DNA from: Naegleria gruberi
Lineage: Eukaryota
Reading direction: 5' to 3' (one strand)
DNA length: 64,000 bases
Assembly (NCBI GenBank): GCA_000004985.1
Contig: GG738908.1
The notes under the pieces are model-generated. The model worked only from the letters and a program-made list of their open reading frames with translations. It was not told where the DNA came from and did not search any database. The position numbers and the translations under genes were made by a program. Below are positions 10,206 through 63,300 of the stretch, piece after piece (the stretch's first letter is position 1; each line of letters starts with the position of its first letter).

Positions 10206-10465
10206 GGCGAAACATTTTTTTGAATCGTTTCAATTGTTGTTCTTCTTGATTAGTAGAAATTTATGGTAAAATTACAAATATGGATAATTTCTTTTTTAGA
10301 TATTTTCAAAAAACATAATTTAATAATAAATTGAACTAGTAGGAATGTAAATTATTGGTCATCTGAAATGATCTTGTTGATAAGATTTGATATTTATTTT
10401 GTGTTGAGATGTGAACTAATTCTCTCACATCGTGAAGTGAAATCAATAATTCTTTGATTGCTTCC

Positions 10466-13400
10466 TTATTGTCTCTTATATTTAATAATAAATTCAGGAT
10501 AACATTGACATTTATCATAGACAATGAATTCTCTATATGAATTAGTTGAAGTATTTGATTGACCAATAACACTATCATAAACTCTATTGTTACTTCCTGA
10601 AATTTCAGGTGGTCTTCTCTGATTATTCATCACTTGTTTTGTGAAATGAATTTGTCTTCCCATTACAACTCTACATAATAATAGAGTATATTCATTGGAA
10701 TGATCAGGTGTACAATATTGATCACTCTTTGAACAATATTCTGCAAAATAAATACCTGCTCCAAATAATCCATTTAAATTTGCAACTCTTTCATCAAATC
10801 CATGTTCTGCAATTGTATTCACAAATTCAGGTTTTGTTCCATGCCATAAATATTTTTCATTCATATTAGAATTTAATCCAATTGTTTTCATCCATTCAAA
10901 TGATTTTGATGTTTTTGAAATATTTTCAGTTTGAACTTGAAGTGAATTAATTGAATCTTGATATGAAATTAAATGATTCATTCTTGATTTGAATGAAGTG
11001 AAAAGTGTTGAATTTTCAATTCTTGAAACACTTGAAACAATTAATTTAGAATAATTAATTCTTGATAATTGATCTCTTCCAGATCCAAGTGTTGCAGAAT
11101 TACACGATACATTCATAATTTCTTGCATTGTATCTTTTAAATATTGTGTAACATCAACAGTGTAATATCTTTTCGAATAAGTTTGGAATGTGTTTCTTTT
11201 CCAATAACTTGGAAGTGAAATTGTTAATTGTTTGGATTTTGATTCTTTAATTTCCTTTTCCATCTTCTCAATTTCAATTTCTTTTTGTTTCAAATTTTGT
11301 AATTTCTTTGAAATTTCTTCACTTTTCTTTGACTTTGAATTTGAAAATTGTTTCTTTTCCTTTTCTAGATTTAAAATTTCAATTTTCAAATTTTCATGAT
11401 TTTTTTTCATTTTCAATTCAAATTCATTCAATTGATTCTGATAATCTTTCAATTCCTTTGATTGATTTTCCATTAATTGAACATGTTTCTGAATTTTAAC
11501 TTCATCTAATAATGTTCCTTTCAAAAAGAATTCATTTGCAAGTGCATCAGATGCAAATGGTCTCAAATTTACATCTGAATTCAAACATTCATCACATAAA
11601 TTATTCAATGATTTGAATTGTTTCAATTCTTGTTCTTTCATACAATTTTTAATTGTTTTACCAAATGCAAACATGTCAGATTTAAATGTTGCTGATGTTT
11701 TTCCATTCACTAATTCAGGTGCTAAATAATCCAATGTACCAGCAATTCCACTTGTTCTTGTGAATAAATTCATTGTTCTACTTGTTATATCTAAACTAAT
11801 ATCAAAATCACCTAAAATAATTGGATAATATTCTGTGATCATNNNNNNNNNNNNNNNNNNNNNNNNNNNNNNNNNNNNNNNNNNNNNNNNNNNNNNNNNN
11901 NNNNNNNNNNNNNNNNNNNNNNNNNNNNNNNNNNNNNNNNNNNNNNNNNNNNNNNNNNNNNNNNNNNNNNNNNNNNNNNNNNNNNNNNNNNNNNNNNNNN
12001 NNNNNNNNNNNNNNNNNNNNNNNNNNNNNNNNNNNNNNNNNNNNNNNNNNNNNNNNNNNNNNNNNNNNNNNNNNNNNNNNNNNNNNNNNNNNNNNNNNNN
12101 NNNNNNNNNNNNNNNNNNNNNNNNNNNNNNNNNNNNNNNNNNNNNNNNNNNNNNNNNNNNNNNNNNNNNNNNNNNNNNNNNNNNNNNNNNNNNNNNNNNN
12201 NNNNNNNNNNNNNNNNNNNNNNNNNNNNNNNNNNNNNNNNNNNNNNNNNNNNNNNNNNNNNNNNNNNNNNNNNNNNNNNNNNNNNNNNNNNNNNNNNNNN
12301 NNNNNNNNNNNNNNNNNNNNNNNNNNNNNNNNNNNNNNNNNNNNNNNNNNNNNNNTGTTATCACTTTCAGTGTAAATTCCTTCAATTTCAATAATATTTG
12401 AATGTTTTAACTTGTTTGTAATTNTCAATTCCTTTTCTAAACCTTCAATTGATTTCTTATCTTTTAAATTATATTGTTTAATTATATGTTTTTTATCATT
12501 TAAATCAATTCCAATAAAAACATTATGATTTCCATTCCAATTTTGAATTGGTTTAATTTCTTTAAACATTTCAGGTGTCATTTCATTAATATTTAAATTA
12601 GATAATAAATCACTTGCCATGTTTGATTTAATATCAAATCCAATTGTCGTTAATTGAAGAAATTTCATTTTAATTTCATTTAATTTTTGAATATTTTCCT
12701 TCAAATTAGATTTTAATTCAATTAAATTAAATTCTTTAATTTGAATTTCATCTTTAATATCATTCATTTCATCTTCATTATTAACATGTTTCAATTCATC
12801 TTTTAATCCTTCAATATCTAGATTTAACATATTTAAATTTCTTGTAATTCTTGTTTTTTGTCTTTGAATGGTTTTAAATTGTTCAGATAAATTTGAATAA
12901 TTATTCATAATATTTATAATATTTTGTAACATTTCATATTTTTCAATTATATATGGAATTGTTTCTTGAATTAATAATTTACAATTTAATTCTTGTTTTT
13001 GATAATAATTATATAATTCTAAAATATTCATTTGATCATTGTCTGAAATTAATACTTTACAATTTGATAATATATTATTTAAATATAATTCTTCTTGTTC
13101 TGATAATTCCATTGCTTTTTGTAAATTATTTGAAAATTGTGTCAAATCAATTTCATTACAATAATTGATAGAGTTTACAATATTTGATAATTGTTTTGTA
13201 ACTTGTTGTAATATTGTTTTAGTTTCATTTCCAAATTTATTATGAGTTGGAACTATATTAATACTGTTTATATTCTTAATAGATTGTTCACTCATTTCAA
13301 TACTGTCAAATAATTCTTGTTTAATAAATTGAGAATTAAATTCATTAAATAATTCTAATTTTTCACTTAATACTTCTAAATAAGATTGTAATTTAAATAA

Positions 13401-14954
13401 ATATTTTTGATTATTAATAAATTCCAATATAGTTCTAATATTATTCATTAAATTATTAATAGTTAATAAATGTTCATTATTTTCAATATTATAATTATTA
13501 CTTGTTAATCTTTCAATTAAATTACAACAATTATTTAAATTATTACAAATTGTTAAATATTCATCTTGAAATTCTTTCTTAATTTGAATAGAAGAAGAAA
13601 ATGATTGAATCGATTCAAATTGTTTTTCAACTTTTCTTCTATTATTATCAACTTGTTGGTTGAGTGAACATAATTTTGAAAATGTTTCAGATGTGATTAT
13701 GAATGATTGTTTTTTCTCTAATTCTTTTCTTTCTCTTTCTATTTTTAGTAAACATTCTTTTTCAATTCTTTCCTTTTCAATTCTTTCCATTTCTAATTTT
13801 TTAATTCTTTCTCTTTCTAATCTTTCCATTTCTAGTTGGTTAAATTTTAATTGTTCCGATTGTTCTTTTAATAGTTGTTGTTCTTTTTCCATGTCACTTT
13901 TAATTGTTTGAATATTAATTCCATTCACTGACCATGTGTAATTTATGTTAATATTTGGATGTTGAAGTAATTGTTTAACAATTTCTAAATGCCCATTTTG
14001 GCAAGCAGTGTATAATGGTGGCTAATATATAAAAATAAAAATTAAATTAAATATTAAATACTTACAAACTAATATTATAAATATAAAAATTAAATTAAAT
14101 ATTAAAATACTTACTTTCTAATATTATAAATAAAATTAAATTAAATATTAAAATACTTACACGCTAATATTATAAATATAAATATAAATTAAATATTAAA
14201 ATACTTACACCCAAATTAACATCAATTGTTTTACATGATAATAATAATTTAACAATTTCTAAATAACCATTTTGGCAAGCAGTGTATAATGGTGTCTAAT
14301 ATTATAAATATAAAATTAAATTAAATATTAAAATACTTACATCCTAATATTATAAATAATATTAAATTAAATATTAAAATACTTACAAACTAATATTATA
14401 AATATAAAATTAAATTAAATATTAAAATACTTACATCCTAATATTATAAATATAAACTAAAATTAAATATTAAAATACTTACAACCTAATATTATAAATA
14501 ATATTAAATTAAATATTAAATTACTTACATCCTAATATTATAAATAATATTAAATTAAATATTAAAATACTTACAAACTAATATTATAAATATAAAATTA
14601 AATTAAATATTAAAATACTTACAACCTAATATTATAAATAATATTAAATTAAATATTAAAATACTTACATCCTAATATTATAAATAATATTAAATTAAAT
14701 ATTAAAATACTTACAAACTAATATTATAAATATAAATTAAATATTAAAATACTTACACCCAAATTAACATCAATTGTTTTACATGATAATAATAATTTAA
14801 CAATTTCTAAATGTCCTTTTTGGCAAGCAATAATTAACATGGTACAACCTTCTGATTTATTATTAACATCTTGTTCATTAAAATAATTATTAAATTCATC
14901 AATTTTGCCGTCTCTCGCAGCATCAAGCGCCTTCTGAAAATCTCGTGTGGCCAT
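10466..14954 (-). CDS. Ankyrin-repeat – long coiled-coil – protein-kinase – PARP-catalytic-domain protein (copy A; interrupted by an assembly gap)
   Basis: Exon 1 (14954..14757) encodes MATRDF..TMLIIACQKGHLEIVKLLLSCKTIDVNLG (ankyrin) and ends at a GTAAGT donor. A 735-bp intron (14756..14022) is built from tandem 47-bp units. Exon 2 starts at 14021 (PPLYTACQNGHLEIVKQLL) and runs through about 430 aa of coiled coil (LEMERLERERIKKLEMERIEKERIEKE...) into a kinase domain: IKQYNLKDKKSIEGLEKEL..KLKHSNIIEIEGIY [N gap 11843..12355] ..ILGDFDIS..GTLDYLAPE. More coiled coil follows, then a PARP catalytic domain (LWHGTKPEFVNTIAEHGFDE..GLFGAGIYFAEYCSKSDQYC..YREFIVYD) with the H-Y-E triad intact. Stop is at 10466. 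Confidence 0.8.
11843..12355. other. Assembly gap (513 N) inside the kinase domain of PARP-gene copy A
   Basis: Run of N characters. The ORFs made of X residues (11835..12401, and parts of 10466..12391 and 11808..13928) are artefacts of this gap. Confidence 0.99.
14022..14756 (-). repeat. Tandem array of about 14 intron-like 46-47-bp units inside intron 1 of PARP-gene copy A, with an embedded 87-nt exon-like ankyrin duplicate (14209..14295)
   Basis: On the gene strand each unit reads GTAAGTATTTTAATATTTAAT(A/T)TT..TATAATATTAG followed by 3 nt. On the plus strand this shows as ACTTAC recurring every 46-47 bp at 14068..14756. The segment 14295..14209 is flanked by ATTAG| and |GTAAGT and encodes an in-frame TPLYTACQNGYLEIVKLLLSCKTIDVNLG (29 codons). 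Confidence 0.85.
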
Positions 14955-15560
14955 TTTTTTAAATTTGTTTTTGTCTACACGTCAAAGGAGAAATGACGAG
15001 TGACTTGACTGAACAATAAATTTGACAGCTCGATCAATGTCAACAATGAAGATCTGTTGGTGATAGAACGAACATAAGACCACTCCACACTGCTAAAACC
15101 CACGAGGGCAATCATTCAGCATGATTAAACAGGAAGATTGGCAACTTCAACAATTGTTGCCATCATTTACTCACAAAAATCTAATAAAAGCGTGAATTCT
15201 TCTCCTTCAATCGCAACAACAATACCACAATATTTAAAAACTCGTGCAATATTCATCAATTTCATTCAATTAAATATTTATATAGTATCGAATCCTTGCG
15301 AGAGAAGACCTTTCTACTACTATTGAATCTTACAACAATCTGATTCAACACTTTAAAACCTTGCTTAAATAAACATAATTTTTTAATAAGATTAAATGGT
15401 GATGGGATTATTTTACACAGTTATTGTGAAGAATTATTTTAGGAGAGTTGTCTCTGTGAAAAGAGATAAAGGTAGAGTAAATTATTGTAAATGATGTCAG
15501 ACGTAACAAGACGAATAAGTGGTGGTGGTGGTGAACAAGTAAGGATTCTCTCATTGTAAA

Positions 15561-17062
15561 TTACAACATGTTCATATCTTTCATATAATCTACGATAATA
15601 CTGTTTTTGACATCATCCAAAACTTTTTTCATTGTACCTGTATCTGTGGCACAAGTTATGTGATGATAAAGTTGACGTCCTGTCTTTGAACTTTGAGATT
15701 TGGCAGCTCCAGCTCGAGAAATGAATTGATCCATAATGTAAGTTCTGGCCTTACCAACATCTCGTCCACCTGTATATTCAGGGAAACACTTGTCCAAATC
15801 CTTAACTTTGATTTTCTCTTCAAACAAGTCATTCTTATTGAAGAAAATAATAAGTGGAGTTGTTTTAAAGTAACGAGATTGACAAATTTCAGTAAAAAGA
15901 GTCAATGATTCAATCATACGATTCATATCCTTATCTTCAAATAAAACTTGATCGTATTCACTCAATGCAGCAACGAAAATAATTGCTGTAACATCATCAA
16001 AACAGTGAATCCTTTTTAAAATAACATCAATTGACATTAATTAACAATGATGATGAATGGTAAATAAACAGTTTTCACACAAGTGACAATAACCATCAAT
16101 AACAATATAGATCAAAGATTTAGCCAAATAGTATGTTAATTAACAAGACACAATAACAAAAACTAACCATTTTCTTCTTTCGTTTCTTTGACCACCAACG
16201 TCAATCATCTTGAATTTGTATCCTTCAATACTAAAATCTGCTTCTACGATACCAACTGTCTTGACTCTTGAACGGAGAACATCTTGTTGGGTTGGTTGAT
16301 AATTGTTACTTGTCAATCTTTCAATATCTCTCAAATAACTATTACAAAATAACATAAAAACATTATATTCGAAACACATTCGAAACCAATAGAAACTTAC
16401 TATTCAGCAGAATCATTCAATTGATATTCACTTCTTCTCCTATAAGCTTCTTGAATACCAGCATCAGACCACAGTAATTTAATATCCTTTCCGAGTTCAG
16501 GTGAAATTATACTTCCAGCATTGAGAATAATTTGTTGTTCTGGAATTCTGGTAAACTTTTCTGCACGTTCGATATTTGATGAATTTGAAAATGAAATTTG
16601 TGGATTCAGAGTTTGCATTGCTTCGATCAAAACTCTGATGGATTGTAAAGTATTTCCATAGATAACATCTTTGAAACGTATACATTCTTCTGGTGTGTAG
16701 CCTTTGTGGTGAATAATTTTCATTTGTTTAAAGATGGTGGATTTCCCTGATTCACCTATTGTTGTTGATATTTAGATTAGTTTCGTCATGTTTAGTTTTG
16801 TTGTTGTTGTTGTTGATATTTAGATATTATACGATAAATAATCATTGGTATTATTCAATTATTGGTATTGTTATTCACAATCGTTCACAAAAAGTATGGA
16901 CGAAACACTTAAGAATATATCACACGAAACTAAACTAAACTTACCAGCTCCTAGTAACAAAAGTTTCAACTCTGACTTTTGTTTTTGATTATCCCTAGTC
17001 AATTTAGCATTAATTTCCTTGTTTTTGGTGGATTCTGCTGATTGTTCTTTAAAGCAAGGCAT
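15561..17062 (-). CDS. Heterotrimeric G-protein alpha subunit, four exons
   Basis: Proposed structure join(17062..16945, 16755..16401, 16338..16168, 16011..15561), giving 364 aa. Exon 1: [16 protein letters not shown]. The G codon is split by a 189-bp intron (GTAAGT..AATAG), and exon 2 continues [27 protein letters not shown] 62-bp intron precedes exon 3 ([20 protein letters not shown]). A 156-bp intron (GTTAGT..AAAAAG) precedes exon 4 ([35 protein letters not shown]..). G1-G5 motifs are present. The C-terminus ...DYMKDMNML is unusual. Confidence 0.85.
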
Positions 17063-17838: not shown

Positions 17839-18858
17839 TTAGAAAATTCTGAATTGTAAATTGGTGCTATTAGTCTTTTTGTTGTTGTTATTATTATTAT
17901 TGTTATTGTTATTGTTGTTTGGCAATGGTACGAATTTCATAACAATAGCAAAGATGCAACCACCCAAGATGGCCAAAGCAACTAACAAACACAAAACAGC
18001 ACAACACTTATCAGTTTGAATTCTCCTCATGAAACTGGTAATTTCCTTTTGAGCTCTTTTCACATTGCTTCCGAGAGCATCCATTTCTTCATCAATTCTC
18101 CTCAATTGGTCTCTTTGTTGTCTCAGTAAATCAGCAGAATCAGTTGCCAAAGCAATAGTTTCCTCTGATTTCTTATTCAAACGATCGATAATGTCCAAAC
18201 ATTCCTTCTGAGTTGAAAATACTTCAGAAAATAATTCCTTTTCAATTTCATCGTGCCTTTGACGTTGTTCCTGTGTCAGATTGGCATTTCCCTTGTACAT
18301 ATTTGTCACATCAGCATCACTGTTTCTCTTAACTTCCACAACATCATCTTCTTCAATGGCATTGGATGAATTCTTTCCTTCATTCAATTTGTTTGCAAAT
18401 GTAAAGAAACCTTCCTTTTTACGAACACCACCACTATTTGTTGCTGATGATGATGAATTTGATGTTAAATTGGAATTTGTTGATTCTAAAGCAGAGTTAT
18501 TTGATGATTTACCATCATTCAACCCCTTTGCTTTAGTTTCAATAAATGTTTTTGATTGTTTGTAACTTGCTCTCAACTTGGCAATAATTTCCTTGTGTTT
18601 CTTCTTGGTATCGGATACTTGATTTTCAACGGATGGATCATTCTTTGTCAAGTTATTAATCTTGTTATATAATTTCCTACATTTTTCCAATAATTCTTCA
18701 ATAGTTTCGGATAGTGTGGAAATTTGTGAGGAAATAAAATTTGGATCCGATTGATTGGTAATGTTTAGACGACGAAGAGTGGTGATGTTTTCTTCAATCT
18801 TTGACTCGACACTTTCCAACTCGTGTGTGTAGGTTGAAAGTTTTTCGAGACTGCTCAT
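17839..18858 (-). CDS. Syntaxin-like Q-SNARE (t-SNARE) with a C-terminal TM anchor and a poly-Asn luminal tail
   Basis: 339-aa single-exon ORF. N-terminal helical region, a SNARE heptad motif (IALATDSADLLRQQRDQLRRIDEEMDALGSNVKRAQKEITSFMRRIQ), a TM segment (CCAVLCLLVALAILGGCIFAIVM), then LPNNNNNNNNNNNNNKK. Confidence 0.7.
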   Translation of the reverse strand: MSSLEKLSTYTHELESVESKIEENITTLRRLNITNQSDPNFISSQISTLSETIEELLEKCRKLYNKINNLTKNDPSVENQVSDTKKKHKEIIAKLRASYKQSKTFIETKAKGLNDGKSSNNSALESTNSNLTSNSSSSATNSGGVRKKEGFFTFANKLNEGKNSSNAIEEDDVVEVKRNSDADVTNMYKGNANLTQEQRQRHDEIEKELFSEVFSTQKECLDIIDRLNKKSEETIALATDSADLLRQQRDQLRRIDEEMDALGSNVKRAQKEITSFMRRIQTDKCCAVLCLLVALAILGGCIFAIVMKFVPLPNNNNNNNNNNNNNKKTNSTNLQFRIF

Positions 18859-19037: not shown

Positions 19038-19156
19038 GGCTACGGCCATATCACGATGAATGCACCTCATCCCGTCCGATTTGAGAAGTTAAGCATCGTC
19101 GAGCCACATCAGTACTGAGGTTGGAGACAACTTGGGAACCTGTGGTGCTGTAGTCT
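19038..19156 (+). rRNA. 5S ribosomal RNA gene (dispersed copy)
   Basis: GGCTACGGCCATATCACGATGAATGCACCTCATCCCGTCCGATTTGAGAAGTTAAGCATCGTCGAGCCACATCAGTACTGAGGTTGGAGACAACTTGGGAACCTGTGGTGCTGTAGTCT matches the universal 5S consensus (GCCATA.C, GAA.GCACC..ATCCCGTC.GA.CT, GAAGTTAAGC, AGTACT, GGGAA). Helix I pairs 5' GGCTACGG with 3' CTGTAGTC. It is followed at once by the Pol III terminator TTTTT (19156-19160). Confidence 0.85.
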
Positions 19157-32046: not shown

Positions 32047-33094
32047 TTAAAAGAGAAAATAAAACAATATGGCAAATATCCAATAAATATTGACAACTGA
32101 CATTCCAGTTGTGGATGCATCATTTCGTGCAGTAATATTCATGGTGGTAAATGTTGAGAATGCATATGGTTGATTAATGAACACAACTGAACAATTCTTG
32201 CAATTAGCTCTATTACTATCCAACCAAGAAAGGAAAGTGACAGCATTATAAACGACAGCATGTACTTTCTTATCAAGGATTAATTTCCATTGAGTTTCTG
32301 GAGTTCCAAAGGAAATGTACTGAGCTGCTGGTAAATTAGTTTTGACATCGATTTCATAAGTAGTTCCTGCGTATGTGGCAACAATGACATTTGACTGATT
32401 GAGACTCTTGTAGGTCGATAATTCAAGTTGTGGATCAAGTTCTGTTCTAAGGAATGCTTTACTAGTTGTTCCCCAAGGACATTGAAAATGAACTGCTTTT
32501 CTTCTGGCATCATTTTGTTCAACATTGACACTAATCACGTCACCTGCCAAAATTCAAGTTCAACAAAGATCCAAATTACTTACAAATTCCAGAATTGACA
32601 GCATTCTTCATTGTGTCAAAGAATCCAAGAGCTGTGGTATTCACATATTTGACATAGGTCTGTAATTTACTTCCGTAATGATTGTTAATTTTCTTGACAA
32701 GTGTGTTGGCAACTAAAAGTCTGGCATCTTGGAATGGATAACCCAGACCACCTAGATCGATGCACATGACTAGTCCAGTACGGTCAGTGAATGGATTTTT
32801 GGTTGGCCAAGAAACTGGAGTATAGGTACACTGTCAGGTGTCAAATCGAATATTTAGTTTCAATATTTTGACATTTGTACTTACTTGTGGCACTTGGAAA
32901 TACATCAGTTTGAAGAAGGCATCCATGAAGGTTGTATCTGTTATCATTTCTTGAGTGGCAGCGTCAATAGCATCAGAATAATCTTGAGTGACAGGTACAG
33001 CGTGTGTTTCGTATTCCTGCCCAATAGTTACTTGGCAGTTTAGCAATAAAACACTGCATAGAATAAGTAAAGATAGCAATATTGAATATTTCAT
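32047..33094 (-). CDS. Secreted protein with an N-terminal signal peptide and a C-terminal hydrophobic GPI-anchor-like tail, three exons; function unknown
   Basis: Proposed structure join(33094..32885, 32830..32584, 32543..32047). Exon 1: MKYSILLSLLILCSVLLLNCQ (signal) ...FQVPQ, then GTAAGT. A 54-bp intron precedes exon 2 (CTYTPVSWPTKNPFTDRTGLVMCIDLGGLGYPFQDARLL...NSGIC), a 40-bp intron precedes exon 3 (DVISVNVEQNDARRKAVHFQCPWG...NDASTTGMSVVNIYWIFAILFYFLF*). Confidence 0.5.
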
Positions 33095-34340
33095 TGTTAT
33101 AATGTTGTTGTTTTTTATGATTTTTATTTCAATTGACAGCTTTTGAATTTTGACAGGCCAAGCTCTTAGTAGTGAATATTCTTAATGTTTCTTAAAAGAA
33201 CTAAATACCGCTCTGCATTTCGTTATAAGAGTTCCTTAACTGTCGTTGCTAAAGTAATCAATTACCAAATTTGTATAATTATAAATGTCAGCAATCATTG
33301 ATAAGAAAGTGAGCGGATCATTAAATTGTCTTTCTCGTTGTGATACGACCAGCTTGGTATGGTGTTGATATCTTTAAAAACGCAAGTACATTGTTATTTC
33401 GTCCACTTTCCAATAACATTATGCAAGTCAATGAACCAAACGAGTTGTAATTAATGCATTAAAGTGTTGATACTATGGCTATAAGGCAACATTTATATCA
33501 TGATTGCAAATGATGTGAAAAAATAAACATTGACATTTGTGAAAATTTCGGACGAAAGTGGTTTACTAGCACAAAATGTTCAATGAAACATTTATAAACC
33601 TTCAGTTCCAAAAATATTGAATCATTTTCAAATTGTAAAGAAATTTGAAATTTATTCTTGTAAAATTTGTGTCTGCCTTCTCGATTAGTTGTTTGAATGG
33701 TTTCTTCCTCCTTCTTTGATGTTTCTCGACAAGTTAAAATACATGTATTCATTTAATCTTTTGCCTTTCATATAAACTCTATATCAATTTGATTCGCATA
33801 TTCAATGCATCTATTGCTTCAATCATGTGAATTGGCGCCAAAATTGATGATGATGAAAACCTTAATCAAAAAAAAATACTCAAACAAGATCACACCATGC
33901 GATTTATTCTCTCTAGTTGTCAACAGCCGACGGAGAAGATGAATTTGTATTATTTAAAAAATTAGCAATAGTAGTAGTAGTGGATCTTGGACTGATGGTT
34001 TTGTGAAGAAAATAGTATCATGATTTCAATCCTAAGGGAAAAGAAGAACAGGAGAGACAATGGTCCGAAGTGTGCACCGATCCAAACATAACTTTCTTGT
34101 TCTCTCCTAAATTTCAAAAAACATTCCTCCTCGCTTGACAAAAGTCTTGGTTCTGCTTTTTCATTATATTTTAATGATTGCAATAATATTATTATTATTT
34201 AAACACCTGATTGCTTGGTGACCTTACGGAAAGGAATTTGGTGGGAATTCTAATAATCATTACTTTGGTTAAATAATGGTCATCATTTTCAATGTTGGCA
34301 TTGATAGAGCTGTCAAATTATTAAAGTCAAATCAAAAAAA

Positions 34341-37070
34341 ATGGCAGGAGATTTTCGGAAGGCGTTTTATGCTGCGGAAAAAGGCAAAATTGATGAATTT
34401 AATAATTATTTTAATGAACAAGACGTTAATAAATCACAGAGAGGTGTTACCATGTTATATATTGCTTGCCAAAATGGACATTTAGAAATTGTTAAATTAT
34501 TATTATCATGTAAAACAATTGATGTTAATTTGAGTGTAAGTATTTTAATATTTAATTTAATTTTATATTTATAATATTAGACTGTAAGTATTTCAATGTT
34601 TAATATTTTTTATATTTAAAATATACATTAGACTGTAAGTATTTGATATTTAATATTATTTTATATTTTTAATATTAGTATGTAAGTATTTTAATATTTA
34701 ATATTTTTTATATTTTTAATATTAGTATGTAAGTATTTAATATTTAATATTATTTTATATTTATAATATTAGACCGTAAGTAATTAATATTTAATTTGAT
34801 ATTATTTATGTTTATAATATTAGTTTGTAAGTATTTAATTTTATTTATATTAATAATATTAGATGGTAAGTATTTTAATATTTAATATTATTTTATTTTT
34901 AATATTAGACACCATTATACATTGCGTGCCACTATGGACATTTAGAAATTGTTAAAGAATTACTTCAACATCCAAATATTGAAATAGATAGCGAATTGTC
35001 AGTGAATGGAATTAATATTCAAACAATTAAAAGTGACATGGAAAAGGAACAACAAATATTACAAGAACAAATAGAACAAAAAAAGTTGAAACAACTAGAA
35101 ATGGAAAGATTAGAAAGAAAAAGAATTACAAAATTAGAAATGGAAAGAATTGAAAAAGAACGTTTATTAAAAATAGAAAGAGAAAGAAAAGAATTTGAGA
35201 AAAAGCAACCATTCATAATCACATCTGAAACACTTTCAAAATTATGTTCACTCAACCAACAAGTAGATAATAATAGAAGAAAAGTTGAAAAACAATTTGA
35301 ATCAATTCAATCATTTTCTTCTTCTATTCAAATTGAGAAAGAATTTCAAGATGAATATTTAAGAATTTGTGATAATTTAAATAATTGTTGTAATTTAATT
35401 GAAAAATTAACAAGTAATAATTATAATATTGAAAATAATGAACATTTGTCAACTATTAATAATTTAATGAATAATATTAGAACTATATTGGAATTTATTA
35501 ATAATCAAAAATATTTATTTAAATTACAATCTTATTCAGAAGTATTAAATGAAAAATTAGAATTATTTAATGAATTTAATTCTCAATTTATTAAACAAGA
35601 ATTATTTGACAATATTGAAATGAGTGAACAATCTATTAAGAATATAAAAAGTATTAATATTGTTCCAACTCATAATAAATTTGGAAATGAAACTAAAACA
35701 ATATTACAACAAGTTACAAAACAATTATCAAATATTGTAAACTCTATCAATAATTGTAATGAAATTGATTTGACACAATTTTCAAATAATTTACAAAAAG
35801 CAATGGAATTATCAGAACAAGAAGAATTATATTTAAATAATATATTGTCAAATTGTAAAATATTAATTTCAGACAATGATCAAATGAATATTTTACAATT
35901 ATATAATTATTATCAAAAACAAGAATTAAATTGTAAATTATTAATTCAAGAAACAATTCCATATATAATTGAAAAATATGAAATGTTACAAAATATTATA
36001 AATATTATGAATAATTATTCAAATTTATCTGAACAATTTAAAACTATTCAAAGACAAAAAACAAGAATTNAAGAAATTTAATTGTGANNNNNNNNNNNNN
36101 NNNNNNNNNNNNNNNNNNNNNNNNNNNNNNNNNNNNNCATGAAAATTTGAAAATTGAAATTTTAAATCTAGAAAAGGAAAAGAAACAATTTTCAAATTCA
36201 AAGTCAAAGAAAAGTGAAGAAATTTCAAAGAAATTACAAAATTTGAAACAAAAAGAAATTGAAATTGAGAAGATGGAAAAGGAAATTAAAGAATCAAAAT
36301 CCAAACAATTAACAATTTCACTTCCAAGTTATTGGAAAAGAAACACATTCCAAACTTATTCGAAAAGATATTACATTATTGATGTTACACAATATTTAAA
36401 AGATACAATGCAAGAAATTATGAATGTATCGTGTAATTCTGCAACACTTGGATCTGGAAGAGATCAATTATTAAGAATTAATTATTCTAAATTAATTGTT
36501 TCAAGTGTTTCAAGAATTGAAAATTCAACACTTTTCACTTCATTCAAATCAAGAATGAATCATTTAATTTCATATCAAGATTCAATTAATTCACTTCAAG
36601 TTCAAACTGAAAATATTTCAAAAACATCAAAAACATTTGAATGGATGAAAACAATTGGATTAAATTCTAATATGAATGAAAAATATTTATGGCATGGAAC
36701 AAAACCTGAATTTGTGAATACAATTGCAGAACATGGATTTGATGAAAGAGTTGCAAATTTAAATGGATTATTTGGAGCAGGTATTTATTTTGCAGAATAT
36801 TGTTCAAAGAGTGATCAATATTGTACACCTGATCATTCAAATGAATATACTCTTTTATTATGTAGAGTTGTAATGGGAAGACAAATTCATTTCACAAAAC
36901 AAGTGATGAATAATCAGAGAAGACCACCTGAAATTTCAGGAAGTAATAATAGAGTTTATGATAGTGTTATTGGTCAATCAAATACTTCAACTAATTCATA
37001 TAGAGAATTCATTGTCTATGATAAATGTCAATGTTATCCTGAATTTATTATTAAATACAAGAGACAATAA
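34341..37070 (+). CDS. Ankyrin-repeat – coiled-coil – (kinase region missing or in gap) – PARP-catalytic-domain protein (copy B, inverted paralog of 10466..14954)
   Basis: Exon 1 (34341..34535): MAGDFRKAFYAAEKGKIDEFNNYFNEQDVN..TMLYIACQNGHLEIVKLLLSCKTIDVNLS, then GTAAGT. A 373-bp intron (34536..34908) is made of eight 47-bp intron-like units. Exon 2 from 34909: TPLYIACHYGHLEIVKELLQHPNIEID, then coiled coil that is near-identical to copy A. After ..TIQRQKTRI comes a 50-N gap (36088..36137), then HENLKIEILNLEKEKK.. and the PARP domain, which differs from copy A at only a few residues (e.g. SKTFEWMK against SKSFEWMK). Stop at 37070. About 80 bp of 3' flank are also shared with copy A. Confidence 0.8.
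34536..34908 (+). repeat. Tandem array of eight 46-47-bp intron-like units forming intron 1 of PARP-gene copy B
   Basis: Units read GTAAGTATTT(T/C/G)A(A/T)(T/G)TTTAATATT(A/T)TTTTATATTT(A/T)TAATATTAG, each followed by exactly 3 nt (ACT, ACT, TAT, TAT, ACC, TTT, ATG). The first exon-2 codon is ACA. Confidence 0.85.
36088..36137. other. Assembly gap (50 N) at the position where copy A carries its kinase domain
   Basis: Run of N characters. The adjacent base at 36070 is also N. Whether copy B lacks the roughly 1.5-kb kinase region cannot be decided from this sequence. Confidence 0.99.
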
Positions 37071-37705
37071 GGAATCAATCAAAGAATTATTAATTTCACT
37101 TCACTCCCTGATGTGAGAGAATTACATCTCAACACAAAATAAATATCAACAAATTTATAAAGTTATGGATCGTGAATTTGGTGAAAAGAATTAAGGAAGG
37201 CTGCAATTAGTTCTCTGATGGAGTAAAACTCTCCGTATGGAAGTACAACGCTTTGTTGTAATTTGACTTTAAATTTCTACTAATTAATTGCATTGTAAAA
37301 CTAATCGATCTCAAATAAATCCTACAAATAGGATGAATCAGATTCGAATTGAGGGTGTTGAAGACGTTCCTGATTACAGTTTCAGTGAAATTTCAATCAA
37401 AACATTTCGTTGCTGATTAGGAAATGCTTTTCTTAGTCATTTCGAATATTTCTTTACTAATGGCCAATGAAAGAAACACAACAGAAGTAGGAGAAACAAA
37501 GTACTACCCAAGAGGTGGTATCTTTAAGCCATCAACGTAATATCCGACTTTACCCGCTCTTGATGGGATGAAAGTAAGAAAAAATGTCGAAACGAAATGA
37601 GACGAAACTCTCGCTCATTCAACACAACAAATCATCAGACGAAACTTATCAAGTTCATATAAAATCATCATCAACGGAGAAAGGAAACATTTCAAGATTT
37701 TTCTT

Positions 37706-39703
37706 TTGGATTCGGAAGAAATTAATTCGAATAAGAAAATTTGGATTTCGTTTATAATAGTTTCGATTATGTTCGGAGGATTAGTTTTATTATTAATGAA
37801 TGATTCATTCATTACGAACGGATCAGATTTTATTCGAAAGGATTCGTTTGAAATTTCTACATCCAATCACGAACTGAAATTAATAGAAATTTATTCCAAT
37901 ACCACTTCTTCTACTGAAATACGAAACGATTCATCAATTTGTCATCCAATTTTATTAGAAATGGGAGCCGAAAGTTCTTTAGGTCTTTGTGATGATCAAG
38001 TTTCGTCCAAAACCATCGCAGCAATCTTTCTCTTTGCCCACACCATCCTCGTTATTGTCACTCTCTCTGGCCTTCTCTACAAATTATGGAAATTACGAAA
38101 CGACATTTCGAATAGAGAAGCCAACTTTCTAACCATTACCAGAAATCCACTTTTAATGACATTAGGCTCCTTAATTGGATGGAGCTATAGTCTTGTAATG
38201 ATGGGAAGAGTACTCATTGGACGAAAGGTTTATCCATGTTTCTTATTCATGTTTGTTTTCTATATGGCAGTTCCTGGATTGGCAAGTACGATCATTATCA
38301 GATGTTTGAGATTGATAATTTTATCGAGGATGAATGAATTGAAAGTCAAGATTGGGAATAGAGAGATGAAGAGTGTGCCGAATCAAGTGAATGATAAATT
38401 GGAAAGGAAATATTCGAATGTTGTTGTGGATGGTGGAGTGGTGGTTGAAAGTGAATTGAAAGTTGTGAGCTCTGTAACGAGTACGAGTACTCAGCAAGAT
38501 GCAATTAATTCTTCTCTTGACAATGTGTCAGAAAGTGAGAGTGCTTGCACAATTTCAGCAATTCCACCAAGTATAGAGCCACAATCAATGAATATTACAT
38601 TGGAAGATTCTGTGAGTGTAAATCAACCTGGATATTCGAAATGGGAATCATTTGAAAGAAGATGGCTCATGAAAATGTACAAATTTCTAATTAGTTCCAA
38701 ATTCATAGCCATCTGGTATGCATCCATTGCAATTATACATATTGGAATTTACATTATCATTGGAGCATTTGATTATTTCAATTTCGAGAATGGTGTTAAC
38801 AATTTTTCCATTGAAGAACGACGATCCATGTCATTTGTGTACGATACTCGAATTTTCTCAGTTGGAGGATGTGGAATTAGTTTCAATTCAGTTTTAATTT
38901 TTGTCATTTATTTGGCAGTTTATGGAATTGTGGCCATTGTCATGTCCATTTATAGTTTTCTGGTCAAGAAGGATATTTGGAAAGTTAAAACAGAGCTCAT
39001 CCTCATTACACTCAATTGGTTAATCTTTTCAATTCTGTACGGAGTTTTTTCAATCATTGAAGTGTTGAGCATTCTCGTTGATTATTTCTTTCCAACAGTT
39101 GCTTTTATTTTACTGGCATGTGTCATTGACACGTTTGTTTCATGCACCATTCCAGTATTTTTCTATCAACGTTCCAAGAACTCTAAAGTAGCCAACACTC
39201 GACAAGTTTCCACCTCCAACATGCTTTCTAAAATACTATTTGATAAGAAATGGAATGAGGAATTCTTAATCTTTTCAGAGAAGAGTTATTGTCCAGAAAA
39301 TTTAATGTGTTGGAATTCTATTGAGATTTTTAGAGAATCTTCTGAGAAATTGAGAAGGAAACATATAATTAGTATTCTGGAAACTTATTTATTGGAAGGA
39401 TCTCCTTTGGAACTCAATGTTCAACGTCAAATATTTAATAATTTTGAAAATATCACGTCAATTGTCAGATCAATCAAAGCTCAAGAAGCAGAATTGAAAC
39501 GCTTAGCAGAGGAGAATAATAAGGTTGTGGGAACAGCTGTGGTAGCTCTGCAACGTAGAAAGTCAATGAAAATCATTCAAATTCCAACAAATTTATTCGA
39601 TTCCATTCAGAAACATTGTGAAATTAATATGGCTGATTGTTTTGATAGATTTTATGTGCAACATTGGCAGAAATTATGCATGGAATTGGATGTAGAGGAG
39701 TGA
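37706..39703 (+). CDS. Seven-transmembrane receptor with a C-terminal RGS domain (7TM-RGS, AtRGS1/GprK-like), paralog 1, intronless as far as visible
   Basis: Signal/TM (IWISFIIVSIMFGGLVLLLM); a Cys-containing ectodomain (NDSSICHPILLEMGAESSLGLCDDQ); seven hydrophobic helices (IAAIFLFAHTILVIVTLSGLL ... FFPTVAFILLACVIDTFVSCTIPVFFY); then an RGS domain (EFLIFSEKSYCPENLMCWNSIEIFRESSEKLRRKHIISILETYLLEGSPLELNV). The true start is uncertain because the first in-frame codon in the track is TTG. Confidence 0.75.
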   Translation: MDSEEINSNKKIWISFIIVSIMFGGLVLLLMNDSFITNGSDFIRKDSFEISTSNHELKLIEIYSNTTSSTEIRNDSSICHPILLEMGAESSLGLCDDQVSSKTIAAIFLFAHTILVIVTLSGLLYKLWKLRNDISNREANFLTITRNPLLMTLGSLIGWSYSLVMMGRVLIGRKVYPCFLFMFVFYMAVPGLASTIIIRCLRLIILSRMNELKVKIGNREMKSVPNQVNDKLERKYSNVVVDGGVVVESELKVVSSVTSTSTQQDAINSSLDNVSESESACTISAIPPSIEPQSMNITLEDSVSVNQPGYSKWESFERRWLMKMYKFLISSKFIAIWYASIAIIHIGIYIIIGAFDYFNFENGVNNFSIEERRSMSFVYDTRIFSVGGCGISFNSVLIFVIYLAVYGIVAIVMSIYSFLVKKDIWKVKTELILITLNWLIFSILYGVFSIIEVLSILVDYFFPTVAFILLACVIDTFVSCTIPVFFYQRSKNSKVANTRQVSTSNMLSKILFDKKWNEEFLIFSEKSYCPENLMCWNSIEIFRESSEKLRRKHIISILETYLLEGSPLELNVQRQIFNNFENITSIVRSIKAQEAELKRLAEENNKVVGTAVVALQRRKSMKIIQIPTNLFDSIQKHCEINMADCFDRFYVQHWQKLCMELDVEE

Positions 39704-39870
39704 GGAGGAGAGGACTAGAGTTTGTTTTTATGAATTACCCCATTAAGATGACTTGTGGCCATAGCTGTCACTTGTCCATATTTGTAATTTATTAATATGC
39801 ACTTTGCGAAGACGAACGAAGAATAAGGTGGAAGATCTGATGCGCCAAGTCCGTCAAAATATTGAAAAAA

Positions 39871-41792
39871 ATGCCCAACTGCCATTCACTTGGCAGCTGC
39901 CACACGTCACTTGACATTCAAAAACCAAAAACAAGATTTTTCATCTCTCTATCTCTTCTCATCATGATGACGATGAATTTTCCAACAAACGCATCAATTT
40001 TGAATACAACCATCATCAACACTGAATTACGAAATGATTCGTCAGTTTGTCATCCAATTTTATTAGAAATGGGAGCCGAAAGTCAGTACGGATTATGTGA
40101 TGACCAAACACCTTCAAAAGCACTTGCTGGAATCTTTCTCGGATTGCACACAATTTTGGAAATAGTTTCGTTTATTGGACTTTCGTATAAATTATGGAAA
40201 GTAAAAAGGTCAACCAGCAATGAAGCCAATTTTCTGACCATTACCAGAAATCCACTTCTCATGATTTTGGGCTCATTGGTCGGATATATCTATAGCATTA
40301 TCATGATGGTTAGAATTTTAATTGGACGAAAGATTTTTCCATGTTTCTTATTCATGTTTTGTTTTTATATGGCAGTTCCAGGATTGGCAAGTACGATCAT
40401 TGTCAGATGTTTGAGAACTATTACATTATCGAGGATGAATGAATTGAAAATCAAGATTGGTAATCGAGAAATGAAAGATTTGAAAAATGTCGAGTTGAGT
40501 GTGATGAGTTCTGTACAGATTGATGCAGTTTCGTCTAGTACGGAAACTTCTGAGAGTAATGTTTCACAAACTAATGTTTCATTTTCGGTTGAAAGTAATG
40601 CTACTGGATCACATTCTGGAACTTTGGAAAGTGGAAATCAAATGGTCAACCAGCAAGTTACTTTGGAAGATTCTGTCAGTGTGAATCAACCAGGAATTAC
40701 CAAATGGGAGAATTTTGAAAAGAAGGTCTTGATGAAGGTTTACAAATTCCTGATCAGTACCAAATTTGTAGTATTGTGGTATTCAATGATTGCCATCGTT
40801 CACATTGGAATTTATATCATTATTGGCGCAGTTGACTATGTGAATTATGATAAGAATATTGCACTTTCGTATGCTGAAAAAAAGTCCTCGTCCTTTGTTT
40901 ACGATACCAGAATATTCACAACCAATGGATGTGGTATCAGTTTCAATAGTGTTCTCATTATTATTGCCTATTTGGTGTTTTATGGAAGTTTTGCAATTGT
41001 GATTATTGGATATAGTTTTTTAATTAAGAGAGATATTTGGAGAGTCAAGATTGAGTTGTATATTATTGTGATTTGTTGGATTTTATTGATTATTCTGTAT
41101 GCTGTCTTTTCAGTTATTGACATTTTGAGTACCTTGTAAGTAATATAGTAGTAGTAGTAGAATGATTAACATTTGACAGGGTTGATTATTATTTTCCAAC
41201 CTTTTTGTTTATTTTGATTGGCTGTATGATTGATACATTCATGAGCGTGACAGTTCCTGTCTTTTTCTATCAAAAGGCAACAATAGATAATAGATATTCT
41301 CAATCTTCTAGAACTAACATACTTGTCAAGTGTCTATTCAATAAGAAGTGGAATGATGAATTTTTACTCTTCTCTGAAAAGAGCTATTGTCCAGAAAATT
41401 TGATGTGTTGGAATGCCGTTGAGCAATTTAAGAGAGCTCCTGAAAAACTGAGAAGAAAACTCATTAAGGTCATTATGGAGACCTATCTTATCGAAGGTTC
41501 TCCACTCGAACTCAATATTCAACGAAATATGTTCAATAATTTTGAAGATATTTCAGCCATCACTGATTCTATTAAGAGACAAGAGAATGAAATGAAAAGA
41601 CTTGTCGCAGAGAATAATATCGTGGTTGGAACGATCAAAAAGAGAAGATCTATGAAAATGATTTCAATTCAACCAAATATTTTGGATAGAGTTCAGAAAC
41701 AATGTGAAGTGAACATGGTTGACTGTTTTGATAGATTTTATATTCAGTATTGGCAAGATATGTGTAAAGATTTGGAATCTGATGAGAATTAA
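39871..41792 (+). CDS. Seven-transmembrane receptor with a C-terminal RGS domain, paralog 2, two exons
   Basis: Proposed structure join(39871..41135, 41180..41792). ATG at 39871 (MPNCHSLGSC..) with the same ectodomain motif (NDSSVCHPILLEMGAESQYGLCDDQ). Exon 1 ends ..DILST(L) at a GTAAGT donor (41136). A 44-bp intron (gtaagtaatatagtagtagtagtagaatgattaacatttgacag) has no counterpart in paralog 1. Exon 2: VDYYFPTFLFILIGCMIDTF..FSEKSYCPENLMCWNAVEQFKRAPEKLRRK (RGS). Confidence 0.75.
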
Positions 41793-60352: not shown

Positions 60353-63300
60353 ATGTCATCACCACAACATGCAACCCTGCTTCTCGCCTTTTTNNNNNNN
60401 NNNNNNNNNNNNNNNNNNNNNNNNNNNNNNNNNNNNNNNNNNNNNNNNNNNNNNNNNNNNNNNNNNNNNNNNNNNNNNNNNNNNNNNNNNNNNNNNNNNN
60501 NNNNNNNNNNNNNNNNNNNNNNNNNNNNNNNNNNNNNNNNNNNNNNNNNNNNNNNNNNNNNNNNNNNNNNNNNNNNNNNNNNNNNNNNNNNNNNNNNNNN
60601 NNNNNNNNNNNNNNNNNNNNNNNNNNNNNNNNNNNNNNNNNNNNNNNNNNNNNNNNNNNNNNNNNNNNNNNNNNNNNNNNNNNNNNNNNNNNNNNNNNNN
60701 NNNNNNNNNNNNNNNNNNNNNNNNNNNNNNNNNNNNNNNNNNNNNNNNNNNNNNNNNNNNNNNNNNNNNNNNNNNNNNNNNNNNNNNNNNNNNNNNNNNN
60801 NNNNNNNNNNNNNNNNNNNNNNNNNNNNNNNNNNNNNNNNNNNNNNNNNNNNNNNNNNNNNNNNNNNNNNNNNNNNNNNNNNNNNNNNNNNNNNNNNNNN
60901 NNNNNNNNNNNNNNNNNNNNNNNNNNNNNNNNNNNNNNNNNNNNNNNNNNNNNNNNNNNNNNNNNNNNNNNNNNNNNNNNNNNNNNNNNNNNNNNNNNNN
61001 NNNNNNNNNNNNNNNNNNNNNNNNNNNNNNNNNNNNNNNNNNNNNNNNNNNNNNNNNNNNNNNNNNNNNNNNNNNNNNNNNNNNNNNNNNNNNNNNNNNN
61101 NNNNNNNNNNNNNNNNNNNNNNNNNNNNNNNNNNTATTGATGGTATCAATTCTTTCACAATTACTGGCTCTACATTTGCAAACAATTCCAAATTACACAT
61201 GACAACTGTTTTCAGCTCTACCTTGAGAGGTTTGACTTTTGAGGGAAATGAAAATGTTCTTTCTGCGAAAGGAATTGGTTCTTTTACATTGGAGCATTCA
61301 AATTTTACTCGCAATGGTAATCCAATTTATATTTCAGGAAATCAATTGACAAATCAATTTAGAAAAATTAGTTTTTGTTTATTTGAGGACAATTGGTCAA
61401 CCAGCAATGGTCTTATAACATTGGAACAGTTTCCCACACATGTGGAATTTAACAATTTCAGAAATAATTGGGCAGTGAATGGAGGAATAATTTATGCAAC
61501 TAGTTCCATAATTACTTTGGATAAAAATCAGTTTGTGGATACTTATGCAAGATTCATTGAAGGTTGTTTAGTTGATAATTGTGGAAATGGAGGAATTGCC
61601 TATATTTCTAATACTATTTTGTACATGTCCAATCTCATTATTCAAAATACTCAAGCAATTAGAGGAGGAATTGTTTATTCTGAGGGAAATTCTCGAATTC
61701 AAACCCAAAATTGTGATATTTCAGATAATATTGCTTCTTTGGCTGGTAATTTATTTTACTTTGGAGATGTTATTGATTTTAATGCCCAAAATTATTCGAA
61801 ATCTGACCTGAGTTCGAGGAAAACAACTCGAGCACTTTGGAGAACGGAATCTAGTCAACCTTACGATAATCAACGAATTGCCATCCAACCCGGGCAAACA
61901 ATACAATTGGATTTTGAGTATTTTGACATGTTTGACAACAGATTCAATAGAACAAATTCTGCTCCAATTATTAAGGCAAGTGATTCATCCAACATTCTTG
62001 TATCCCTCGTTTCAATTGATCCACTTTCCAATACTGACTTTAAATTCTTCTTGCAAGTGTCAGAAACTTCAAAAAGCTCAAATATTTCAGTATATCTCCC
62101 ATTCCATGACTTTACATTTGAGATTGATATTGATATTATTGGATGCCCTTTTGATTATGGTTTATCACCACTTTTAAATTCACACTACAACGTGTGTGTC
62201 TATAGAGGTTATATTATAATTGTATTCTCCTCTATTGGCATTGCAATCATTCTACTGGTTGCAATTTATTTATTGATCTATGTTGTTAAGAGATTACTCA
62301 AATTGAGAAAGAAGGAAATGACTGAAAAGGAAATTGCACAAAAGATTATTGATAAGAATTTTGTTTTTTCTATCAATACTGATAATGAGCACACTCCATT
62401 ATTATCAAAACTGGAAGTTGCCAAGATTAGTAATATCTTAATTCCAATTGAGGATATTGAAATCATCAAAAGAATTGGAGAAGGAGCTAATGGTACTGTA
62501 TACTTAGCTAAATGGCAAGGAAATCGTGTAGCTCTAAAAAGTTTAAAATTCGAAAGGGATAGCACTGACTTTGAAAATGAAGCATCTCTCCTTAATAATT
62601 TGAGACATCCTTCTATTGTGAGATTTTATGGAATTGTAGTGTCTTCTTCAGTTAAATACATGGTTACAGAGTTTGTGGAAAATGGAAGTTTGGATGCAGC
62701 CATTCATAATTCCAAAATTGGAAAGAAGAAACTTGATTTACAAACAAAATTACAAATTTTGAGAGGAATTGCAAATGGAATGAACTATCTTCATAATTTG
62801 AAAACTCCATGTCTTCACAGAGATTTGAAATGTCAAAATATTCTTCTCAATTCCAACATGGAACCAAAGGTTACAGATTTTGGATTGTCAAAATTGACTT
62901 TAAATTCAATGACATTGACTTGCAATATTGGAACAGCTCTTTACATGGTAAGTTTTCAAATTTAAGAGAGTTAAACCGAGTCAATCATTGTAAAGTCTCC
63001 TGAATTATTTGGAAGTGGTTACAAAATTTCATACAAATTGGACGTTTACAGTTTCTCCATCATCATGTACGAATTATTCTTTGAGGAAACTCCATTCTTT
63101 AGCTCATCAGCCAAGATGAGAAAATTTATCATTTCATCCACTGAACAATCACCAGAAGATGATCATGATACAATGAATTTTGGTTTTGCAATTCCAGTAA
63201 AAGTTTCGAAAGGAGAACGGCCAATGCTTCCCTGGACTAATGATGAGGAATGTGAAATGTGGATTAAGGAATTTATAGAACCCTATGAAGGAGGAGGAGG

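Follow-up and report, generated by a model that had tools for sequence, protein, structure and literature searches.

Head-to-tail arrays of complete minimal introns spaced by single codons in two ankyrin-repeat PARP paralogs of Naegleria gruberi

Introns have reportedly been born from tandem arrays, an observation that later papers (PMC3488318, PMC2812944) credit to Zhuo et al. (2007, PNAS). Among human paralogs that duplicated recently, introns have been traced to tandem arrays and to internal tandem repeats where exon and intron meet (De Grassi & Ciccarelli 2009, PMC2812944), and under the tandem-duplication model of intron gain a duplication over splice signals adds an intron (Rogers 1989; Drosophila, Lehmann et al. 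2010, PMC2891723). Here, we describe two paralogous genes in a 64,000-nucleotide (nt) stretch of the Naegleria gruberi genome (assembly GCA_000004985.1, contig GG738908.1; the window hereafter), both of which harbor head-to-tail arrays of mini-introns at an ankyrin-repeat boundary, 14 units in copy A and eight in copy B. As in the tandem-array-derived introns, the unit at the boundary carries splice sites, its copy number differs between recent paralogs, and the repeats are of minisatellite size (~30-50 bp), which are able to create new introns and alternative splice patterns. The Naegleria unit differs in being a whole, signal-complete minimal intron, the use of its sites being a prediction from sequence; in the exactly one codon between units, which keeps every splice combination in frame; and in its host, a protist with very short introns instead of a human gene with long ones. 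The tandem-duplication model finds a parallel in two spacers, ACT and CGT, that can be read as duplication junctions. However, in the classical model an exonic AGGT is duplicated into a first intron, whereas here an existing intron would have been duplicated with three nucleotides, and repeatedly.

We propose that the arrays are minisatellites whose unit is a complete functional minimal intron plus one codon, and that the units are most likely spliced singly, a reading we hold with about even confidence. The evolutionary origin of the arrays, as reconstructed from the units and their flanking exons, is well supported. More tentatively, and with confidence somewhat short of even, we suggest that mini-introns each spliced alone would place up to nine consecutive single-codon exons in the mRNA, so that one unit gained or lost would amount to one loop residue.

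A preliminary description of this DNA had reported arrays of complete intron-like units with a GTAAGT donor, an ATTAG acceptor and exactly 3 nt before the next GTAAGT, eight in copy B (34536..34908) and about 14 in copy A, and each of these statements held. All 22 units start with GTAAGTA and end with ATTAG, all 19 internal junctions consist of ATTAG, exactly three nucleotides and GTAAGT, and parsing gave eight and 14 units, although these copy numbers may be slightly off, as the assembly is a draft with N gaps, some inside both gene copies. Its statement that an intron of 44 nt plus 3 nt makes a period of 47 is correct as a consensus but not as a constant, since the intron parts range from 36 to 48 nt. 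Tandem Repeats Finder, which it had named as a check, returned 14022-14764 for copy A (period 46, 16.1 copies, 81% matches, score 864) and 34528-34909 for copy B (period 47, 8.1 copies, 78% matches, score 397); the arrays thus have the head-to-tail 10-100-bp unit and variable copy number of a minisatellite. The mean pairwise difference between units was 3.9% in A and 9.3% in B, and unit B1 was identical to A4, A8 and A10. Each array carries unit-specific variants, and the order of units within arrays is therefore fixed. The opening 21-mer of the unit, GTAAGTATTTTAATATTTAAT, searched with up to three mismatches, had 17 matches in the 64-kb window, all within the two arrays, against none in shuffles. 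A metagenome scan with the junction pattern TAATATTAGNNNGTAAGTATTT found 11 loci with a single match each and no tandem structure, which we regard as chance hits.

As RNA, array A1 (the longer of the two in copy A) can form one long AU-rich hairpin, at -104 kcal/mol against -72 +/- 4 for shuffles (z = -8), because every unit contains AAUAUU palindromes. The array B fold is weak (z = -2.4), single units fold no better than shuffles, and an Rfam search of the arrays gave no RNA family match. RNA structure was considered as a driver of the arrays and rejected, the fold being a by-product of a repeated palindromic unit and not conserved. As DNA, the hairpin-prone arrays could favour slippage and copy-number change.

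The 22 intron parts were aligned, giving 45 majority-ungapped columns. Invariant columns numbered 23, among them all nine splice-site columns chosen a priori (GTAAGT and TAG; hypergeometric P = 9e-4). The motif TTTAAT, ~25 nt upstream of the 3' end, is invariant in 22/22 units and is a plausible candidate branch site; motifs resembling CTAAT, CTAAA or TGAAC occur in other introns of the window, at 15-30 nt from the 3' end. No change fell in the 18 signal columns (GTAAGTA, TTTAAT, ATTAG), compared with at least 34 changes, including at least 20 substitutions, in the other 27 columns; in array B alone, the figures were zero and 24. The recency of the copies does not explain this invariance, because the test concerns where differences fall. 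Moreover, the array predates the gene duplication, since units of B differ by 9% pairwise while the synonymous divergence (dS) between copies A and B is ~0.08, and array B has lost no donor, acceptor or 3-nt spacing despite its age. This argues for constraint on the internal splice sites, beyond what would be expected of the preliminary description's fallback, "only a length-polymorphic intron".

Each unit, taken singly, has the sequence features of a U2-type GT-AG intron, namely GTRAGT, a branch-like motif, YAG and a spliceable length. Regarding length, a secreted solute-binding-like gene in the same window contains two short introns of 54 and 40 nt. Their removal yields a 317-amino-acid open reading frame (ORF) identical over its full length to a JGI model of N. 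gruberi and 54% identical to the N. lovaniensis ortholog, in an alignment without gaps at both junctions, whereas keeping the 40-nt segment leads to immediate stops. With introns of 40 and 54 nt supported, units of 43-48 nt lie inside the working intron range of the species. The heuristic ORF-joining scan for other introns was noisy, and we used only cases backed by conserved motifs or an ortholog. In the array itself, retention of unit 1 leads to a stop after 10 codons.

The spacers do not resemble the introns that they separate. Their G+C content is exon-like, 13/57 (23%) against 7/568 (1.2%) in the non-signal intron interior (Fisher 4e-10; 9e-8 with distinct units only), and their mean pairwise difference is 49% in A and 62% in B, where the introns differ by 3.9% and 9.3%, respectively. 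None of the 19 spacers is a stop codon. The third base is T in 16/19, as is the last base of exon 1 (GGT, AGT). In addition, ACT of copy B combines the AC that opens the next exon with the T that closes exon 1, and CGT of array A2 combines the opening C of the last exon (CCA) with the closing GT of the middle exon. We infer that ACT and CGT are primary duplication junctions with different breakpoints and three exonic nucleotides each, in keeping with the earlier claim that the unit of duplication included the splice junction and 3 nt of exon. This suggests independent founding events, each carrying exactly 3 nt, as a reading-frame filter would produce. Independent founders that all settle at 3 nt are expected if the spacers reach the mRNA and frame matters, and unexpected if the array is always removed whole. 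Hypervariable spacers of exon-like composition are nevertheless only partly explained.

The 87-nt segment between the two arrays of copy A (14295..14209) had been described as an exact duplicate of an ankyrin repeat and as a cassette inside the first intron. Its flanks, its 29 in-frame codons and its capacity to add one ankyrin repeat were confirmed, but its exactness and its place inside an intron were not. The identity is 76/87 to the exon-1 tail and 63/87 to the next-exon head. The segment is a chimera, in which nt 1-29 correspond to the next-exon head (28/29), nt 32-87 to the exon-1 tail (56/56), and nt 30-31 are unique; this make-up points to unequal crossing-over inside a sequence that ankyrin repeats 1 and 2 have in common, ...ATTTAGAAATTGTTAAA.... 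In both arrays the first unit (A1 and A11) carries the same private TTTAT variant, and the block of exon tail plus four units aligns between the arrays at 91%. Hence, both the chimeric exon and the duplicated flanking intron of an exon duplication by unequal crossover are present. The segment encodes a well-formed ankyrin repeat, and its splice sites are the same as the perfect sites of its neighbors. It is also part of the JGI gene model of copy A, and in the model of a third paralog (NAEGRDRAFT_70343) the ankyrin repeats number three and show this head/tail composition as well, with ...LEIVKLLLSCKTIDVNL... occurring twice. We therefore favor reading it as an ordinary exon in the middle, flanked by the two arrays and lacking in copy B, which is simpler and more parsimonious than a cassette buried in an intron. 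Table 1 lists the features.

Table 1. Arrays, spacers, exons and supported short introns in the window, with coordinates on the 64,000-nt stretch.
Feature	Coordinates	Strand	Description
Array A1	14296..14756	-	10 mini-introns, 39-45 nt; three-unit higher-order repeat; donors 14756, 14714, 14668, 14622, 14574, 14528, 14482, 14434, 14386, 14340
Array A2	14022..14208	-	4 mini-introns, 43-46 nt; donors 14208, 14160, 14114, 14065
Array B	34536..34908	+	8 mini-introns, 36-48 nt; middle exon absent; donors 34536, 34584, 34635, 34682, 34729, 34776, 34827, 34866
A1 spacers (nine)			TTT GAT GTT TTT GAT GTT GAT TTT GAT
A2 spacers			CGT AAA TTT
B spacers			ACT ACT TAT TAT ACC TTT ATG
87-nt exon	14209..14295	-	TPLYTACQNGYLEIVKLLLSCKTIDVNLG; 29 codons, in frame, stop-free; flanked by ATTAG and GTAAGT
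Copy A exon 1	14757..14954	-	ATG at 14954; 198 nt, 66 codons; N-terminus and ankyrin repeat 1; ends ...GAT GTT AAT TTG GGT before GTAAGT, phase 0
Copy A next exon	12425..14021	-	Starts CCA CCA TTA TAC (PPLY...); last ankyrin repeat, coiled-coil/low-complexity region, start of kinase domain; reaches gap 11843-12355
Copy A C-terminal part	10466..11842	-	Kinase C-lobe and PARP catalytic domain, stop codon included
Copy B exon 1	34341..34535	+	195 nt, 65 codons; ends ...TTG AGT before GTAAGT
Copy B exon 2	34909..36087	+	ACA CCA TTA TAC..., TPLYIACHYGHLEIVK...; up to gap 36088-36137
Copy B C-terminal part	36138..37070	+	PARP catalytic domain; DNA 98% identical to copy A
Identical ~56-nt exon tail	14757-14812 (-), 14209-14264 (-), 34480-34532 (+)		Remaining exon 1 ~10% different between copies
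Two short introns, secreted solute-binding-like gene	32884..32831 (54 nt), 32583..32544 (40 nt)	-	GTAAGT...CAG

The host genes lie inverted and head-to-head, copy A at 10387-14967 (-) and copy B at 34328-37149 (+), in a window of 32% G+C with assembly gaps at 11843-12355, 36088-36137 and 60394-61134. Their product runs from N-terminal ankyrin repeats through a long coiled-coil/low-complexity stretch and a protein-kinase domain to a C-terminal PARP catalytic domain. The gene had been called a PARP gene, rightly so: the catalytic domain matched PF00644 with E 1.5e-23 and 83.8 bits (Pfam gathering cut-off 26.7), and ankyrin membership was supported by Ank_2 at 76.2 bits (cut-off 27.3). The Pkinase fragment scored 24.2 bits, under its cut-off of 31.7, because the assembly gap cuts the domain. 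Two of the gaps (11843-12355 and 36088-36137) hit the same part of the gene in both copies, the protein-kinase domain, and in copy B a stretch of ~420 codons that comprises the entire kinase domain is either absent or concealed by the 50-N gap. The coding DNA of the coiled-coil/low-complexity region has a G+C content of 16% at 12000-14000 in copy A and 21% at 34001-36000 in copy B, compared with 32-37% in neighboring genes.

Between the copies, DNA identity is 92% in exon 1 and 95.5% in the following exon, and dS falls from ~0.08 beside the arrays to 0.02 at the 3' end; judged by this divergence, copies A and B are recent duplicates. Over the final ~56 nt (TTAGAAATTGTTAAATTATTATTATCATGTAAAACAATTGATGTTAATTTG...), exon 1 does not differ between the two copies, and the middle exon has the same sequence, which suggests gene conversion or unusually strong constraint beside the arrays.

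The best protein matches of the spliced product were XP_002674588.1 (NAEGRDRAFT_70343) and XP_002668491.1 (NAEGRDRAFT_76596), both annotated as "predicted protein [Naegleria gruberi]"; together with the full-length identity of the 317-amino-acid product to an N. gruberi model, these matches mark the window as nuclear DNA of that species. NAEGRDRAFT_76596, a JGI model of 391 amino acids, is itself a chimera, in which an unrelated upstream gene at 18858..18217 (-) is fused across ~3.5 kb to a portion of copy A that starts at 14672 and takes in, downstream, micro-exons, the 87-nt exon and some of the exon that follows. The real exon 1 is missing from it, and it ends long before the kinase and PARP domains. 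The model joins the micro-exon codons (DVFDVDFD...RKF); being a chimeric prediction, it does not count as transcript evidence. Copy B is apparently without a model in the protein database.

Regarding the origin of the arrays, the founder would have been a short phase-0 intron at the boundary of two ankyrin repeats (...DVNLG / TPLY...), duplicated in tandem with three flanking exonic nucleotides; slippage or unequal exchange in register would then have changed array size. In a separate event, ankyrin repeats 1 and 2 would have crossed over unequally in their homologous parts, duplicating the segment made of the exon-1 tail, the intron or introns and the next-exon head and giving the chimeric middle exon. 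The view of the locus as a case of repeat-driven intron expansion and exon duplication is supported by the arrays, the copy numbers of the paralogs and the chimeric exon.

Regarding splicing, every unit has a perfect 5' site, a candidate branch site, a 3' site and a spliceable length, and the spliceosome would thus most likely pair each donor with the nearest acceptor. It would remove the units one at a time and leave one codon per junction, while retention of a unit would lead to an immediate stop. The copy A mRNA would then read ...AATTTGGGT, the nine A1 spacers in order and ACACCATTA..., and the copy B mRNA ...AATTTGAGT, the seven B spacers and ACACCATTA.... The predicted products are ...DVNLG-FDVFDVDFD-TPLY...DVNLG-RKF-PPLY... 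for copy A, third ankyrin repeat included, and ...DVNLS-TTYYTFM-TPLY... for copy B, and peptides such as TIDVNLGFDVFDVDFDTPLYTACQNGYLEIVK would mark the product. The extra residues would sit in the inter-repeat hairpin loop, which is tolerant of length change. The canonical ankyrin repeat has 33 residues; those encoded here have 29, and the shortfall is at exactly the inter-repeat loop, which makes a few extra loop residues structurally plausible. Since the spacers are all 3 nt long and stop-free, any donor-acceptor combination would remain in frame, and copy-number change would be harmless. The NAEGRDRAFT_70343 model has the linkers NRD and (T)DYRDY between its three ankyrin repeats, and these residues also appear to be among the amino acids encoded by the spacers here. 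The gene of this third paralog would accordingly hold four and six mini-introns, spaced by the codons for N, R and D and for D, Y, R, D and Y. Removal of the array as one intron, or recursively, had been said to leave no micro-exons. This is true if the first donor pairs directly with the last acceptor, or if removal proceeds inside-out, but not of ratchet-type 5'-to-3' recursion, which would leave a codon per step because the donor lies 3 nt beyond the acceptor.

Several observations weigh against unit-by-unit splicing. The avoidance of stop codons in the spacers was discarded as evidence, since ~0.3 stops are expected from composition and the result is uninformative, and the exact 3-nt spacing could be simple inheritance from one founder. 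We know of no constitutive strings of 3-nt exons, and simultaneous recognition of an acceptor and a donor 3 nt past it should give a steric clash. Nor are the linker peptides conserved between the paralogs. Among 5.8 billion proteins searched, the family was represented by the two JGI genome models alone, with no sequence derived from a transcript. At 36 and 39 nt, the shortest units fall short of the smallest intron supported here (40 nt), and the conservation test rests on few independent events, with TTTAAT picked after the fact. The awkward geometry of 3-nt exons, together with the long A1 hairpin, which can bring the outer sites together, would suit a single long intron instead. Each array would then be spliced from its first donor to its last acceptor, the internal sites being silent copies carried by a recently expanded intronic minisatellite and the mRNA having no extra codons, giving the junctions AATTTGGGT/ACACCATTA in copy A, or AATTTGGGT/CCACCATTA if the 87-nt exon is skipped, and AATTTGAGT/ACACCATTA in copy B. 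Most copy A units are very recent (3.9% difference, three-unit higher-order repeat), leaving little time for their sites to decay, and the spacer-free protein still scores as ankyrin repeats. However, the older and more diverged array B keeps 8/8 donors, 8/8 acceptors and all its 3-nt spacings, the hairpin is weaker in B and absent in single units, and the spacer composition is not intron-like. Proximal pairing is usual with identical strong sites, as is well established, and introns of 40 nt are supported in the species. We rate removal of each array as a single intron as the main rival, though rather unlikely. The constraint on internal sites would be equally expected from a variant of unit-by-unit splicing, in which any donor pairs with any downstream acceptor and yields an in-frame ladder of 3-nt steps with no dominant product, the 87-nt exon of copy A being included or skipped as well. 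All donors and all acceptors are essentially equal in strength, and all combinations are in frame and stop-free, so there would be no selection against mixed use. Proximity effects, on the other hand, usually give a strong preference and not a flat distribution; this variant seems to us a shade less probable than the single intron.

Two other explanations fare far worse. A draft assembly with N gaps inside both copies invites the suspicion that the arrays are mis-assembled low-complexity sequence, or that both genes are pseudogenes, and exon 1 (14757-14954 against 34341-34535) differs between the copies by 21 non-synonymous and three synonymous changes, a ratio of non-synonymous to synonymous divergence (dN/dS) of ~1.7 on few sites. 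Yet the private variants are ordered, the arrays are short enough for one read or read pair to span, the same architecture occurs at two independent loci and is implied by the third paralog's model, the ORFs are intact on either side of the gaps, and dN/dS outside exon 1 is 0.55 and 0.23; artefact or decay is thus very improbable. The contrast between near-identical introns and almost unrelated spacers (4-9% against 49-62% pairwise difference) would fit repeated insertion, in which an intron entered one codon boundary after another of an ancestral loop, through reverse splicing or as a mobile element of introner type. In the 64-kb window, however, the unit is confined to the two paralogs, and the 11 loci of the metagenome scan were isolated chance matches, none of them an array. 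It is implausible that insertions would have fallen at every third nucleotide, the higher-order repeats copy spacers together with introns, the flanking exon ends explain ACT and CGT, and 16/19 spacers end in T like exon 1. We consider repeated insertion the least probable of these explanations, marginally below artefact.

The surroundings of the two copies hold further features. A full-length 5S rRNA gene (19038-19156, +; Rfam RF00001, 105 bits, E 4e-22) is flanked by protein-coding genes, of which the one at 18858..18217 starts ~180 bp away. Beside copy A, a G-protein alpha-subunit gene has a conventional 189-nt intron (16756-16944, -) that interrupts LLLLGAGESGKST (P-loop motif LLLLGA/G/ESGKST) and, 22 nt from its 3' end, contains ACTAATC, a motif resembling a branch site. 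Directly downstream of copy B, the tandem paralogs at 37706-39703 and 39862-41755 (+), with 67-78% DNA identity, encode multi-pass membrane proteins, at least the first of which has an RGS-like C-terminal region, as judged by sequence motifs only.

If the units are used, the locus would be a natural minigene series of 4, 8 and 10 identical minimal introns 3 nt apart in a culturable organism, and would bear on donor-acceptor pairing under intron definition, on minimum exon size and on splicing in transcription order. Tandem duplication of an existing intron would then multiply introns locally and lengthen a protein loop residue by residue. If mini-introns are indeed each spliced alone, intron duplication would, in a manner not described before, adjust the length of a protein loop by one codon at a time, with the spacers as the translated, freely evolving or diversifying part. 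The chimeric middle exon and the arrays also indicate that repeat proteins can gain whole repeats via intron-assisted unequal crossing-over. If the arrays are removed whole, the locus would amount to a length-polymorphic intron and no more, and an explanation would still be needed for the conservation of the internal signals and for the odd spacers. We know of no description of as many as nine single-codon exons in a row between minimal introns, and our literature search, of incomplete coverage, returned no account of this locus or of minimal-intron arrays with single-codon spacing in Naegleria or elsewhere.

Among known splicing arrangements, the ratchet points of Drosophila Ubx and other genes (PMC6110457, bioRxiv 10.1101/006163, PMC8605326) likewise place an acceptor almost directly before a strong GTAAGT donor, and stepwise 5'-to-3' removal is mechanistically plausible for the arrays as well. 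There, however, the donor abuts the acceptor as a zero-nucleotide exon and serves very long introns, whereas here 3 nt lie between AG and GT at 19/19 junctions, a codon would be left per step, and the segments are of 45 nt. Fungal stwintrons and complex intervening sequences (Lipomyces, PMC7138796) also have several U2-type units at one intron position that can be removed consecutively, and duplication of intron signals has been proposed as their origin. Their units are nested in a splice signal of the outer intron, while the Naegleria units are side by side and independent, adjacent and non-overlapping, with no splice signal interrupted. Finally, if the units are spliced singly, the spacers would be 3-nt exons and so resemble microexons (3-30 nt; PMC9929638, PMC13149111), from which they would differ in that the known microexons are single, lie between long introns and have dedicated enhancers.

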